Part shown: in pieces, positions 29,701 through 41,700 of the stretch
Position numbering within the stretch: position 1 is the stretch's first letter
Layout of the letters: each line of letters opens with the position of its first letter
Source: Nitrospiraceae bacterium
Lineage (GTDB): Bacteria > Nitrospirota > Nitrospiria > Nitrospirales > Nitrospiraceae
Direction of reading: 5' to 3'
NCBI GenBank assembly: GCA_037442105.1
Contig: JBBIQV010000006.1
Location: 62,001-105,742 of the forward strand
Length of the DNA: 43,742 bases
Made by a program: the position numbers

Positions 29701-32700
29701 TGATGTCTTTTTCCGGTTGATCAAACTTTGCGCGAAGGATGCGAGCGGTCTCTGTGAGGATGGGAACTGAACAGTACAGTTCAACCTTACGGCGATGGGC
29801 AAGCAGAAAAGCGTCTTCGCTTTTGCTGCCATGAATGATGAAGGCCGACACGAAGATATTCGTGTCGAAGACCACCTTCATCAGCGGTCCTCAAACACGA
29901 TCCGTTCAACGTCCTCCTCGGTCAGCACCCCTTGCTTCCTGGACCGGCGCGCCATCTTGCGCTGGAGCGCGAAGAATTCTTGTTCCTCGCACTCTGCCTT
30001 GTAGGTATTCACCATCCGGCGAAACAGGTCGCTCTTGGTCGTCCCCTCACGCTCCGCGAGCCGCTCATACTCTCTCGCAAGCGCGGGACTGACCGAAAAC
30101 CCCAGCACCGCCGTTTTTCGTGCCACGAGTGACTCCTAGTTTAACTGGGTTAAACTCTAGCACGCCTGCGAAACCATGGCAATCCTAACAAGAGATATAG
30201 GGGTCAAGAGAACAATTTCGTTGACAGCAGACCGGCAGAAAAGTAGGGAAGCGGCTGAAAGGGGAAACGCAGGGACGACCGAAAGGGTGGACCGCTCCTT
30301 AGAAATTGCACTCTTGACCCCGATTGTCCCCAAGATCGGTGGACCCTCCTGCAGCGCGTTCGAACCTTTTTTGAGGCCCAAGGCCCCTGATCCTCGCATT
30401 CCCGCCGCTTGAGCGCCTGTCACGCCCCTTGCGTGCGCCCATTCGGATTGGCCTTGCGGTGGCAAGGGGGCGTGCCAGGCGCGCTTTGCCTCGGTCACTC
30501 GCCTTGCAGAGGCTCTGAGGGTCTCTGTCCTCGGGCTCCAGCCCCGCAGGGTCTTCCGCTGCCTGCGGCCAGAGCCCCTCTGGAGCCGCAAGGCTCGTGC
30601 CCTCGGCGTTCGGATCGCGCAGAACTTCTCAGACTCTCAACCCCCGCAAGCGAGCACCGCCCAGCCTTCCGGCCCGCCCAAGGCAACCAGGCAAAGAAGA
30701 TCGCCCCCAAAGAGTTCGCGGGAGACTGCCTGCGACAGACTCCCGCTCACCAGACTGTAAAGGTGTGGCTTCGTGGCTCGCGCCACCAAGCCAATCTTCC
30801 ATCTACGGTCCCCCGCCCGCCCGGCTGTCTCAGTCGGGCGGCTTCAGCCCCTCCGGGTCTTTCGCTTCCGCCCTTGGTGAGCCAGCCCTCCCCCTTTAGA
30901 TGAGATGCAAGAAGTGGTACTCTTTGTCCGCCCGGTCCCCGCACGAGCGCATACGTGGTTGGGTCACCCGATGAAGCGTCAGACAGCCATTCCACTTATT
31001 AGTCTCTTCTCTGGCCCCGGGGGACTGGATCTGGGATTCCGGCGAGCCGGGTTCAAGACAGTACTCGCGATCGACTCCAATAAGGCAGCCGTAGAGACTT
31101 ACAATCGGAATACCCGGCCTGCCGTAGCCCAACAATGCGATCTTAATGCGCTTCAGAAAGAGACTCTTATATCGATGCTTAGGAAAGCATCACCAGGCCA
31201 GGTCCCTCGCGGAGTTATTGGTGGACCACCCTGTCAGAGTTTTTCTTTGGGAAATGTGCGGAAAAAGCGGCACGACCGGAGGTCGCGCCAGGGCTTGGTC
31301 TTTGCGAGATTGGTGCAAGCATTGAATCAGGAGTTCGGACTTGACTTTTTTCTCTTCGAAAATGTCGTTGGCCTTCGGACATCCCGCCACAGGAACCGCT
31401 TTAAGGCTATCTTGCGGGAACTGCGCAAGGCAGGATTCAATTTGTTCGTCCAGGAACTCGACTGTGGCGCATTTGGAGTGCCACAGCGGCGTCGGCGCCT
31501 GATCGTTGTGGGGATCAACCGCGCAAAGTACCCATGGGTGAAGTTCGAGTTCCCAATCGGCTCTGCCCAGCCTGCGACTGTGCGTGATGTAATAGGCGGG
31601 TTGCCTCGGCCCACCTTTTATCGTCGCGGACTCAAACCGCGTGATATCCCATTTCATCCTAATCACTGGACTATGAATCCCCTGTCGCGGAAGTTCCGCA
31701 ACGGCATCTTCGGAAACGGCCGCTCCTTCAAGAAATTGGATTGGAAGAAGCCCAGTTACACTGTTGCCTATGGAAACAGGGAGATACATGTCCATCCGGA
31801 TGGACATCGCCGGCTTAGTGTCTTGGAGGCGATGCTCCTGCAGGGCTTCCCCCGCACCTATCAATTTCGAGGCACCCTAAGCGATCAGATAACCCAAGTC
31901 TCCGATGCGGTTCCACCTGCTTTGGGAGAGGCCATTGCGCGAGCCATCAAGCTGTCCATCTACTCCCCGATTACCGTGCTACAGGCCTCCCTCCTAGGGT
32001 GGTTCAAGCAAAAACAGCGGCGCTTCCCATGGCGGCAAACACGCGACTCATTCCGCGTGTTGTTGGCCGAGAAGCTGTTGCAGCAAACGGCTGCTACCCG
32101 AGCGGTCGTCAGAGCTTTCCGAGAGATAGTTAGGCGTTACCCAAGCTGGGCCGCGTTGGCGGAAGCGCCAAAACAGGAACTGAAGCGAATCGTGGCACCC
32201 TTGGGATTCGCCTATCGCGCTGTTGAGCTCCGGCACCTGGCACGCGCAATCGTCCAGCGCCACGGGGGGAGGGTGCCGCCAAATCTGAAGAGCCTGCTGG
32301 GACTACCTGGTATTGGCGACTACTCCGCACGAGCCGTGATCTCCTTTGCGTTCAGGCAGCCATTCGCGGTCGTCGACACTAATGTTGCACGCTTCCTCGT
32401 ACGGTATTTCGGGCTAAAGCTACGCTTGACGCAAAATCCTGCCCGTGACCGCCGACTGCAACGCATTGCTGACGCAGTTGTGCCGCCAGATGCCTCACGA
32501 GATTTCAACCTTGCTGTGCTCGACCTGTGCGCTTCTCACTGCAAGGCAAGGCAGCCGGAGTGCAACACTTGTCCCGTCCGAGCCCAATGCGCTTACTGGA
32601 ACATGAATGTGAGGGGCGCTGCGGTTACACTCTCCCGAGTCAGCGCGGGCGTGACCAAATAGAAATGGCCATGGAAGATTTAACCTATTACGTGTTCGCA

Positions 32701-38700: not shown

Positions 38701-41700
38701 GCCAACAGTTCGCCGTCCATCCCCGCCTATCTCCGCGACTATCTCGAAGCTGTGGCAAACCAGAACAGTCTTGTTCCGGCAGACTTTCAGAGAGACGTGG
38801 TCAATCATCTGAGGAACCACGGCTACACTAATCAGTTCGTGCTTCAGGATCAGAGACTTTGCTTGCAGCCGCCCGTCGGCATTTTTTACGAGTGTCCGCA
38901 ATGCCGGCGGATTCATCTCCATCAAGCTGGTGGTATCTGCACCGACTGTTTGACACAATTAGGGCTAGCTCAGCCCTTGCAAGCAAACCCGCCAGAAGAT
39001 GACTACTACGGGTATCTTGCGACACGCGCAGGCGAGCCCTACCGGCTGAATTGCGAGGAATTGACAGGGCAGACTGACAAGGAGGACGCACGGCGCCGCC
39101 AGCGTCTTTTCCAGAACATAGTGTTGCCACAGCAAGAGAACCCGCTAACTGACGAGGTGGATCTACTCAGCGTGACTACCACGATGGAGTCCGGCGTGGA
39201 CATCGGTGCCTTGCTGGCGGTCATGATGGCGAACATGCCGCCAATGCGATTTAACTACCAGCAACGCGTTGGTCGCGCTGGCCGGCGCGGAGCGGGCCTG
39301 TCGGTGGCGCTCACTCTTTGCCGCGGTCGCAGTCACGACGACTACTACTTCCAGCGGCCGGACCGAATCACGGCCGACCCGCCGCCTGCGCCCTACGTGG
39401 ATGTCAGCAGCGGACCAATTATCCGTCGCGTGATAGTGAAAGAAGTGCTCCGTCAGGCCTTCGCACCTCTCGGCCTTCCGTCTTCTGCGGACAGCGTTCA
39501 CGGCGAGTTTGGTGAAGCTCCAGATTGGCACCAGCCTCTGCCGCCCGGAACCGGCCCGCCCGTGCGCGTCTTAATTGCGGACTGGATTCAAACTCACCCA
39601 CAGGAAATCGAACGCATCTGCGATGTGTTGCTCGTGCGGACCAATCTACACGCACGTCGGCAGGCGCTGCTAGATTTCGCAAGAAACGATTTGGTGCCAA
39701 CAATCGACGCGATCGCATCGAGCGCGGCATTCCCACAGGTGAACCTGAGCGAGCGGCTGGCCAACGCCGGGCTGCTACCGATGTTCGGCTTTCCCACGAA
39801 CGTGCGACTACTCTTTCACAAGGATCCCACCCTATCCGAATGGCCTCCCGAGAAAGGAGTTGTGGACCGGTCTCTCGACATAGCCATCAGCCAGTTTGCC
39901 CCTGGCTCAGAGTCAGTCAAAGACGGGCTGATCCACACGTCCATCGGTGTGGTCCACTACTTACCTGGCCCGACGTCAGTCGTAGAACAGCCCAACCCAC
40001 TTGGCCCCGCGCGACCCATCGGCCTCTGTCGAAATTGCCAGGCTGTGGATCATTCACCCGCGCCGGGAACAAACTGTCCCGTCTGCAATGCTGGGGCCCC
40101 CGACTTTCGCGTCATTGAGCTCAGTCAACCCCACGGGTTCCGCACCTGGTATGGAGCCAGCCGCAACTTTGACGGTCTGTTCGAGTGGACCCCGCGTGCC
40201 TCGCGACCGAAGACCGGCGCCACGCTCCACCCGCTCACTCCGCGTGCGAACTTCGGAGTCTGGGCAGGGCAAGAGACTGTCTTCGTTATAAACGACAACG
40301 ATGGGGAGTGTTTTGACTTCCACAAGCTCATCGGCAGAGAAACGTGGGTGACTCAGGACGCTTTGAACAGGAGCAACGTGCCTGTCAATCAAATTGATCT
40401 CTCTGTTCCCCCAGTCCACCGGGCGCTCGCATCAGTCAAGCAAACGGACCTGCTCGTGCTGGGAATCAGGCAGTGGCCACAAGGCGTTCTTGCCTCACCC
40501 CTCAACGTTGACGGCAGGGCCGCGCTGTATTCCCTCGGCTTCCTGCTTCGCCGTGGGGCAGCCGATCTCCTAGACGTGGATGAACGCGAACTCAAAATAG
40601 GGCTGCGTGTCGTGCGCGAAACATCGGGAGAAATTACCGGCCAGATTTTCATCTCAGACACCCTGGAGAACGGCGCAGGCTACAGTTCTCGCCTGGGCCA
40701 GCCCGCCGAAACACAAAACCTTCTGGAGTATGTGAGTGGCGCAAACGACCAGACTTTCTATGCACCCCTGGTGTCCGCGGCGCACGCAAGTAGCTGCCAG
40801 ACTTCCTGCCCAGATTGCCTCCGTGACTTCACCAATCTCGGCTTCCATAACATCCTTGACTGGCGGTTAGGATTAGATCTCGCCCGACTAGCCCTCGACG
40901 CCACTGCGCCAGTTGGTCTAGATGTTCCCTATTGGGTACAGCTTGCAGGTGCGGCCTCTCAAGCCTACTTTGGTGCTCAGCCCGGTTGGGTAGTTCAGAG
41001 TTTTGCCAACTTACAAGCTGGTCGCCGGGGCCAAATTGTCGAGATCATATCTCACCCATTGTGGTCCCGTGATCCAGCAATCCTGCATCCGAGGTTGGTT
41101 CAAGCTCGTGACGAGGCACGCGCCGGAGGCGCCATTACAGTCCGGTTTAAGTCCTTGTTCGACGTTTTGCGAAGGCCCTATTACTAGACGGGAGTACGGT
41201 TCCGGGAACCTTTTCCGGCGATCTTCGGAAGGGCCTCATGGGACTTCCATTTACGGTCGTGCCACATCCGCTTGGTAACACGGAGTTCGGGGTAATTGAT
41301 CCACGCGAGGAACGCCTTCGCCACCAACAGGATTTCCTCGATCCGGGCGAACTCGCGCCGGAGCCGGTCCTTCTCCGCGAGCAGCTTCGCTGCCACCCGC
41401 CCGAACCCGCGCCTGAGACCGTCGAGGTACTCTAGGTTGGCGGCTTGCCAATTGATAAATTGATCTTGCACCGTCTGCCGCTCTATACCGCTGTGTGTAT
41501 GCTCTCATTCCACCCGGTACTGGTATCCCGATTCCGTCCTCTCGGCAACGAGCTTCGGGAACCTTGATCCAACGAGGCGGAGGAACTGCAATGCGAGATG
41601 TGGAAGGGTGCCGCTGGCCTCGCGCCTTCTTATCTGGTGAAGGTTGCATATCGCGTCAGCCTCCTGTACTTGCCGAACTGCGTCGCGGATTCGCCACCGC

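Follow-up and report, generated by a model that had tools for sequence, protein, structure and literature searches.

The deamination of 5-methylcytosine to thymine produces T:G mismatches, and the pairing of a methylase with a repair enzyme of the Mig or Vsr type is already known in principle. Vsr, a nicking endonuclease, differs in fold from Mig.MthI (1KEA), which is a short monofunctional HhH-GPD [4Fe-4S] glycosylase without a MutY C-terminal domain. Mig.MthI is encoded by a separate gene of an archaeal (Methanothermobacter) Type II R-M system, together with M.MthTI and R.MthTI, on plasmid pFV1 (NC_001336); Mig-like genes flank C5 methylases on pFV1 and on two other plasmids. The thymine pocket of Mig is formed by F27, R30, A50, Y126 and L187, and R47 is possibly not absolutely required; the V45A/Q182L substitutions do not confer T/G activity on MutY (PMC2714593), so pocket residues are no proof of substrate. 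Among Druantia defence systems, type II consists of DruM, DruF, DruG and DruE, and type IV of DruE, DruF and DruL, without DruM and DruG (PMC8565338).

The window, meaning the whole 43,742-nt stretch of Nitrospiraceae DNA that was analysed, contains four forward-strand reading frames at the places given in an earlier note on this DNA: g00829 (30905–32662), g00830 (32671–34764, 697 aa), g00831, or DruL (34766–35695, 309 aa), and g00832, the DruE helicase (35692–41187, 1831 aa), whose start overlaps the DruL stop. The first gene encodes a C5-cytosine methyltransferase fused to an HhH-GPD glycosylase. The earlier Pfam matches of g00829 (DNA_methylase, residues 31–349, E 1.1e-51; HhH-GPD, 391–507, E 6.2e-13; HHH, 452–481) and the PADLOC matches of the operon (DruM, 4.8e-77; DruL4, 2.1e-28; DruE4, E 0) were reproduced, and the PCQ, ENV, LPGIGDYS, VDTNV and C-x6-C-x2-C-x5-C motifs were confirmed by reading the sequence. 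The fusion is real. Both Pfam domains are listed for 120/120 best homologs, which are fused themselves, and a 10,889-nt contig from a second study, spanning 30971–41191 with 514 differing letters in the nucleotide comparison, has no listed indel in the fused gene; an assembly or frameshift artefact is thus ruled out. The two-domain architecture stands as first described; the length of 585 aa probably does not. The start codon is probably the ATG at 30971, giving a 563-aa protein (30971–32662, +), since homolog P0001 (96% identical) has 563 aa, residues 2–17 of the longer frame are gaps in 110–116 of the best 120 homologs and the second-study contig diverges upstream of 30971. Residue numbers of the fused protein refer to the 585-aa frame unless marked otherwise.

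By its motifs, conservation and fold, the N-terminal domain (residues 31–349; 30995–31951, +; PF00145) is an intact C5-cytosine methyltransferase with predicted activity. The catalytic residues C110 (PCQ), E152 (ENV) and R196/R198 (RxR) are present, and the model has the two-domain fold of such enzymes, matching M.HaeIII (1dct) with Z 36.0 and rmsd 2.1 over 295 aligned residues. The target-recognition region is nearly invariant in the alignment of the best 120 homologs. Genome k-mer depletion gave no informative target word and papers on PP_RS20740 gave no recognition motif; a synonymous shuffle of 503 operon genes against 612 control genes yielded weak avoidance ratios (CCWGG 0.86, GGATCC 0.72). 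The junction P338–W366 (31916–32002, +) has a fixed length, with 28 residues in 120 of 121 alignment rows, and is modelled by AlphaFold2 as one continuous helix, 316–348 in 563-aa numbering (pLDDT 93, pTM 0.91).

Sequence matches and the residue map point to a Mig-like monofunctional [4Fe-4S] glycosylase in the C-terminal domain (residues 358–566; 31976–32602, +), which also matches PADLOC model PDLC03398 (E 9.2e-40). It has the features of the MutY/Mig family: an HhH motif with Tyr in place of Lys, the catalytic Glu and Asp and a four-Cys Fe–S loop. E389, Y473 and D491, together with R377, occur in 120/120 best homologs, and each cysteine (C546, C553, C556, C562) is kept in 119/120. The Tyr at the HhH position, likewise universal in this set, replaces the AP-lyase lysine of Endonuclease III (Nth), which the two Nth homologs of the host do carry. 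The closest PDB sequence match is Mig.MthI (138.7 bits vs 122.1 for MutY), and all five Mig thymine-pocket residues are present. Mig F27 corresponds to F374 (F/Y in 118 of the best 120 homologs), A50 to A397 (Ala in 87, the MutY-like Val in 33), Y126 to Y473 and L187 to L536 (Leu in 107); E42, L44 and D144 of Mig.MthI are also shared. Where Mig.MthI has R46/R47 and I43, however, the fused family has Q393/Q394, as in MutY and in 120/120 best homologs, and an invariant K390 with no counterpart in Mig or MutY. K390 and E441 are family-specific and are inferred to form a salt bridge. 

The methylase family was followed through 164 related loci, 47 of which encode the fused protein, 20 the methylase with a separate adjacent glycosylase gene and 97 the methylase without a glycosylase. 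The nearest unfused relatives, previously taken for MutY-type proteins, are in fact stand-alone genes of the same clade (44–56% identity) that adjoin members of this methylase family. Druantia genes lie beside 26 of the fused loci, a GHKL-ATPase system beside 10 and a DUF262 system beside two, nine having no call; the fused protein or the two adjacent genes are also found with systems of the GHKL-ATPase/PP_RS20740, DISARM-like and DUF262 kinds, the glycosylase tracking the methylase across four partner systems. In 10 of the 31 non-redundant Druantia-linked loci, the methylase has no glycosylase at all. The view of the fusion as a Druantia-specific feature of DruM is therefore rejected: the methylase–glycosylase is a portable module of several unrelated defence systems and not a special Druantia weapon. 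Databases label the fused family only as methylases. No description of a C5-methylase–glycosylase fusion was found in the titles and abstracts of the papers listed by literature searches, a scope that excludes REBASE and most subscription papers, and the word ‘glycosylase’ was not found in the supplements of PMC8565338 or PMC12458937 (one file incomplete).

Vsr occurs in 0/67 loci with a glycosylase vs 27/97 without, and in 0/52 vs 27/90 after de-duplication; within the sequence available per locus, 63 of those 90 loci without a glycosylase lack Vsr as well. Where a locus has 1 kb or more of sequence upstream and 4.5 kb or more downstream, the counts are 0/16 vs 24/58 (Fisher p 8e-4, kinship ignored), and for non-redundant Druantia-linked loci 0/21 vs 5/10. 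This exclusion is not phylogenetically independent, as the glycosylase-bearing methylases all fall in one 58-row clade, one long-branch row excepted; there are only five independent pairs and the sign test is not significant. The host assembly (87% complete) encodes a canonical MutY on another contig (C33); neither Vsr nor another C5 methylase was detected in it.

The Mig-type pocket residues, the separate MutY of the host and the complementary distribution with Vsr make it likely that the C-terminal domain provides T:G (U:G) repair for the protein’s own methylation, replacing Vsr. That part of the earlier proposal, a methylase with its own Vsr- or Mig-like repair, is upheld; its restriction to Druantia is not. 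The N-terminal domain would place 5-methylcytosine on host copies of a family-conserved target, marking self DNA for the adjoining defence system, presumably for use by DruE. The C-terminal domain, given its likeness to Mig.MthI and its gene context, would flip out and excise the mispaired T, and probably U as well; host base-excision repair could then restore the target from the abasic site, limiting C-to-T mutation. It would thus do, by base excision in a fused domain, the job that falls to Vsr, a nicking endonuclease, next to other methylases of this family. A fixed helix as the link would guarantee 1:1 co-inheritance of methylase and glycosylase, and the methylase domain may bring the glycosylase to the sites that it methylates. 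If true, a single gene here covers the mutational cost of methylating cytosine, and the reach of Mig-type repair grows from one archaeal plasmid to a large family in bacteria. The occurrence of the methylase in three natural forms, fused, with an adjacent glycosylase gene and with Vsr in place of the glycosylase, makes the hypothesis testable by swaps and also offers a way into the part, so far unstudied, that methylation plays in type II/IV Druantia.

It is unlikely that the operon has co-opted a MutY-like glycosylase that acts on adenine or on mismatches in general (A:G, A:8-oxoG), although the LLQQT motif and Q394, equivalent to MutY Q42, are those of MutY and the top NCBIfam match of the fused protein is mutY (169.5 bits, under the cut-off of 286.5). 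Identity is 34% to Mig.MthI, no higher than the 32–38% to MutYs; fold comparison gives a tie, with Z 25.9 for Mig and 25.8 and 26.1 for MutY/MUTYH (MutY catalytic domain: Z 25.8, rmsd 2.0, 213 aligned); and in the tree, where these glycosylases form their own clade (support 94/95), neither grouping with MutY (AU p 0.37) nor with Mig (0.21) is rejected. The adenine-binding Gln182 of MutY, however, is Gln in 0/120 best homologs, F374 and L391 are Mig-type, and the C-terminal 8-oxoG domain is absent, only 3–34 residues following the last Cys in this set. A housekeeping MutY is rejected in view of the host’s separate gene; six other matches in 400 phylum genomes (E < 1e-60) are ordinary short MutYs. 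The fused protein also differs from MutY in its methylase part, and an adenine glycosylase would not explain why the gene is so strictly tied to a C5 methylase.

Nor does an offensive role seem probable, in which the glycosylase would act on phage DNA, cutting out uracil, 5-hydroxymethyluracil or other bases that are modified or deaminated, so that the nicks or 3′ ends would load DruE or other effectors. The glycosylase is found in defence operons throughout, and the invariant K390 and absent Mig Arg47 permit a different substrate. Single-stranded 3′ overhangs and forks activate type III DruE (bioRxiv 10.64898/2026.05.12.722862), END nucleases use EndoIII-fold domains as modified-base sensors (PMC12191111) and base-excision restriction exists (PMC10273834). 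The END domains, however, are catalytically dead and nuclease-fused, whereas the domain of g00829 is intact and fused to a self-marking enzyme. Moreover, the glycosylase follows the methylase and not the effector through four unrelated partner systems, and half of the Druantia-linked loci that lack it have Vsr instead. An elaboration, in which a new specificity class (invariant EKLLQQT, K390) docked rigidly on the methylase excises non-self phage bases at the methylase target, creating an entry for a membrane-tethered DruF–DruL–DruE complex at the injection site, is equally improbable. Least likely is a domain that excises 5-methylcytosine itself, making the protein writer and eraser, or one that serves the methylase as a rigid arm for DNA binding or processivity. 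The fixed 28-residue junction and the confident single domain arrangement are in keeping with this, and DEMETER/ROS1 are described as HhH-GPD 5-methylcytosine glycosylases (PMC3045615). Yet the glycosylase is a separate gene in 20 loci, erasing a protective mark beside a restriction effector would be self-destructive, and the invariant catalytic residues disfavour a role in binding only.

The putative self-repairing methylase here heads a type IV-like Druantia operon on an island that is probably mobile. PADLOC scores of DruE (DruE4 1751 bits, DruE2 1597) place it in the type IV/II clade, and its Walker A, DELH and motif VI are intact; DruL matches long DruF2 models over their C-terminal part (positions 751–1030). 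g00830, described earlier as having no family, does lack a direct PADLOC match, but it is a DruF homolog by profile comparison (hhalign probability 99.8, E 3.6e-28; HMM E 5e-14, with a purpose-built profile and not the PADLOC model), and its relatives match DruF4. The homologous part covers residues 289–692; where DruF4 has its N-domain, g00830 carries a hydrophobic N-terminal helix with basic residues, followed by a long linker of low complexity, a reading that also draws on the hydropathy of its relatives, and it is predicted to be a DruF variant with a membrane anchor in place of that domain. Its C-terminal part is modelled as an Ig-like β-sandwich with weak fold matches (best Z 6.6), a likeness that may reflect only a common arrangement; Foldseek found no match to this part at E 0.001, and the protein atlas gave a single match for residues 300–697, at 0.75, below noise. 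The type IV set of DruE, DruF and DruL is complete, a DruM-like methylase is present, which type IV lacks, and no DruG, which type II requires, matched among the scanned ORFs of the island. By gene content, the operon adds a DruM-like methylase to a type IV Druantia; it has a predicted anti-phage role, differing from the described types in the glycosylase fusion and the putative anchor of DruF.

The island that carries the operon has conserved ends in inverted orientation. The left end is a conserved non-coding element (30334–30900, +), the first 347 nt of which recur inverted at 43359–43705 (−, 98% complementary), 37 nt before the end of the contig. The outermost part of this element is similar to a tRNA 3′ end in reverse complement, and we read it as att-like; no tRNA was found within the window and no plasmid matched the left end. 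Rfam had no match in 28000–43742 at E 0.1, and the predicted folding of the end repeat is no better than that of shuffled sequences (z −1.2). A DUF4062-domain ORF inside the island (41505–43208, −, 567 aa, Pfam E 2.4e-5) has a tblastn match in 0/164 related loci, and the second-study contig diverges before it, at 41191; by these comparisons, it does not belong to the conserved operon. Separate leads are the predicted membrane anchor of DruF and the conserved ends of the island, which precede varied defence cargo.

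The fused gene opens a four-gene operon on the forward strand, and the open reading frames, domain matches and motifs reported in the earlier note were all reproduced. The genes are tightly spaced: 8 nt separate the fused gene from g00830 (32671–34764), 1 nt separates g00830 from DruL (34766–35695) and the DruL stop overlaps the start of DruE (35692–41187). The fused gene likely starts at ATG 30971, giving a protein of 563 aa; its residues are numbered here in a 585-aa frame. The same four genes lie on a contig from a second study; it shows 514 differences across ~10.2 kb and departs from the window right after the DruE stop, so the conserved unit comprises the four genes, with the DUF4062 ORF (41505–43208, reverse strand) outside it. 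This ORF, convergent with DruE, encodes 567 aa with a weak DUF4062 match; it was not found in any of the 164 related loci and is possibly extra defence cargo.

The first protein joins a C5-cytosine methyltransferase to an HhH-GPD [4Fe-4S] glycosylase, both with intact catalytic sets. A whole-protein search gave 3345 matches among 7999 scored candidates, and all 120 listed homologs (identity 47–96%) contain both PF00145 and PF00730. In the AlphaFold2 model (pLDDT 93, pTM 0.91), a single helix spans the boundary between methylase and glycosylase, and 120 of 121 aligned rows have a junction of 28 residues. The methylase domain matches the M.HaeIII fold (Z 36.0, rmsd 2.1, 295 aligned) and the glycosylase domain that of Mig.MthI (Z 25.9, rmsd 1.9, 215 aligned), in a tie with MutY. 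The target-recognition region and catalytic residues of the methylase are nearly invariant in the homolog alignment, which suggests that the family probably shares one methylation target; the mark may serve as self-marking for Druantia. The closest known systems are the Mig.MthI–M.MthTI pair and the Vsr that accompanies C5 methylases; no description of a C5-methylase/glycosylase fusion was found in the portions of the literature searched.

Both Mig and MutY come into question as the model for the glycosylase. Its top PDB sequence match is Mig.MthI (138.7 bits, against 122.1 for MutY), but the domain is no more identical to Mig (34%) than to MutYs (32–38%), and in trees the family forms its own clade, with neither Mig nor MutY rejected as sister group. 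The MutY C-terminal domain is absent, and a canonical MutY and two Nth homologs are encoded elsewhere in the same genome. Residues telling Mig from MutY are named in PMC2714593. When mapped on Mig.MthI from plasmid pFV1 (its residues in brackets), the window's protein keeps F374 (F27), R377 (R30), E389 (E42), A397 (A50), Y473 (Y126), D491 (D144) and L536 (L187); unlike Mig.MthI, it has Q393/Q394 at R46/R47 and an invariant K390 at I43. Among the 120 homologs, none has Gln at position 536, and 87 have Ala at position 397, the other 33 Val. The pocket is of Mig type with one MutY-type deviation. The glycosylase would work most like Mig, of which it is at most a candidate member, and its role is probably T:G repair.

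The 164 loci comprise the best 80 of 107 from species genomes, the best 80 of at least 372 from metagenomes and all four from viral contigs. Selection by family motifs and ranking by score bias the set towards fused forms, and the EKLLQQT motif is in part circular within it. A fused methylase occurs in 47 loci (one frameshifted); in 20 the glycosylase is a neighbouring gene of its own, and in 97 the methylase has none. A second glycosylase type in four loci (L010, L154, L156 and L164), with Trp at the L187 position and, in three, no K390, precedes the methylase in three of them; a Mig-like gene was apparently recruited here independently.

Neighbour genes were clustered and then named via Pfam, PADLOC and NCBIfam, and the system labels rest on profiles built in this analysis. 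The fusion had been presented as a Druantia feature; Druantia genes do adjoin 26 of the 47 fused loci, but a GHKL ATPase and PP_RS20740-family pair adjoins 10 and a DUF262 pair two. Nine have no system call, and the six non-redundant ones end within 516 nt downstream. Separate glycosylase genes also occur in DISARM-like operons, and in the methylase tree (the query plus 136/142 non-redundant rows, by length or selection) the partner label switches at least 12 times within the rows that have a glycosylase. As a module, the fusion is thus portable between systems and no Druantia invention.

The commonest home of the methylase family is a system of three genes, encoding a C5 methylase, a GHKL ATPase (weak BbrUII/HgiDII-type match) and a PP_RS20740-family protein, seen at L070:10981–14123 and in about 60 other loci; no strong PADLOC model matched it. 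The DISARM-like operon using the methylase (L027, L029, L037; about 25 loci, mostly Actinomycetota) contains DrmA, DrmB, a NERD-UvrD helicase and two proteins of no family. About 10 loci have, downstream of the methylase and the glycosylase, a pair of DUF262 (NsnA/PD-T4-2-like) and RelA/SpoT-region proteins (L141:11642–12724, L139:5751–6725).

Vsr is present in none of 67 loci with the glycosylase versus 27 of 97 without it, in 0/16 versus 24/58 after de-duplication and flank control, and in 0/21 versus 5/10 of 31 non-redundant Druantia-linked loci. Replacement of Vsr by the glycosylase fits the tree, since three Vsr carriers (L016, L124, L140) fall inside the 58-row clade that contains the glycosylase-bearing methylases, and all three lack the glycosylase. 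The independent-pairs test had only five pairs and its sign test was not significant; most glycosylase-less loci likewise show no Vsr.

The protein g00830, assigned to no family in the earlier note, indeed has no direct match in the libraries searched, but it is a DruF homolog: its relatives match DruF4, and over residues 289–692 its profile can be aligned with proteins of DruF4 type (probability 99.8, E 3.6e-28). A 19-residue window of mean hydropathy ≥1.79 in the N-terminal part occurs in 16 of 18 members of the g00830 cluster (some near-duplicates), mostly within residues 1–30 and with basic residues after it, versus 0 of 10 DruF4-type proteins. The window's own g00830 starts with such a stretch, and this hydropathy points to a membrane-anchored DruF variant. 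In the sub-family, which includes L002, L006, L081 and L082, the predicted anchor and a long low-complexity linker stand in place of the DruF4 N-domain. By the PADLOC definitions in PMC8565338, DruE, DruF and DruL without DruM constitute type IV, and type II requires DruG; the locus is therefore type IV Druantia with an additional DruM-like methylase. Type III DruE is described, in bioRxiv 10.64898/2026.05.12.722862, as a helicase activated by 3′ overhangs.

A search of 30 related genomes gave no DNA match to the operon, and a scan of 400 genomes from the phylum turned up no further fused gene. The operon is bracketed by 347-nt inverted copies of a conserved non-coding element, which has no Rfam match; the copies form the ends of the island. 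Within the order, 10 genomes out of 250 were found to contain part of the element. Downstream genes were annotated at nine sites: seven have cargo for restriction or defence (Druantia I, two Hma-like, Type IIG, three Type I-like), another has a CARF regulator, and the ninth shows nothing clear. In three relatives a tRNA lies beside the far end, and related sequence flanks a serine recombinase that overlaps tRNA-Ala; the contig stops short of the tRNA expected here. We read the region as a tRNA-targeting defence island, and the element with its cargos looks like an undescribed family of such islands. The element (30334–30900 and 43200–43742; L183, L184, L186, L202 and L212–L216) stands directly before differing defence cargos, often as inverted pairs near tRNA; SIR2-pAgo is also among the cargos in related genomes.

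Just outside the island (29477–30126, reverse strand, and 29378–29478) are a PIN toxin and a ribbon-helix-helix antitoxin, followed by a pyrimidine-rich low-complexity repeat. CAGCTG is strongly under-represented in the whole genome (observed/expected 0.12; CTCGAG 0.43), a scarcity unrelated to the island as far as tested. Around purL, a 116-nt segment recurs in four spaced copies that are 61–95% alike (3173–5815 for the set), and two convergent GlnE-like genes (20144–24210) are accompanied by a Fic gene and a 127-nt direct repeat (24028, 25469).
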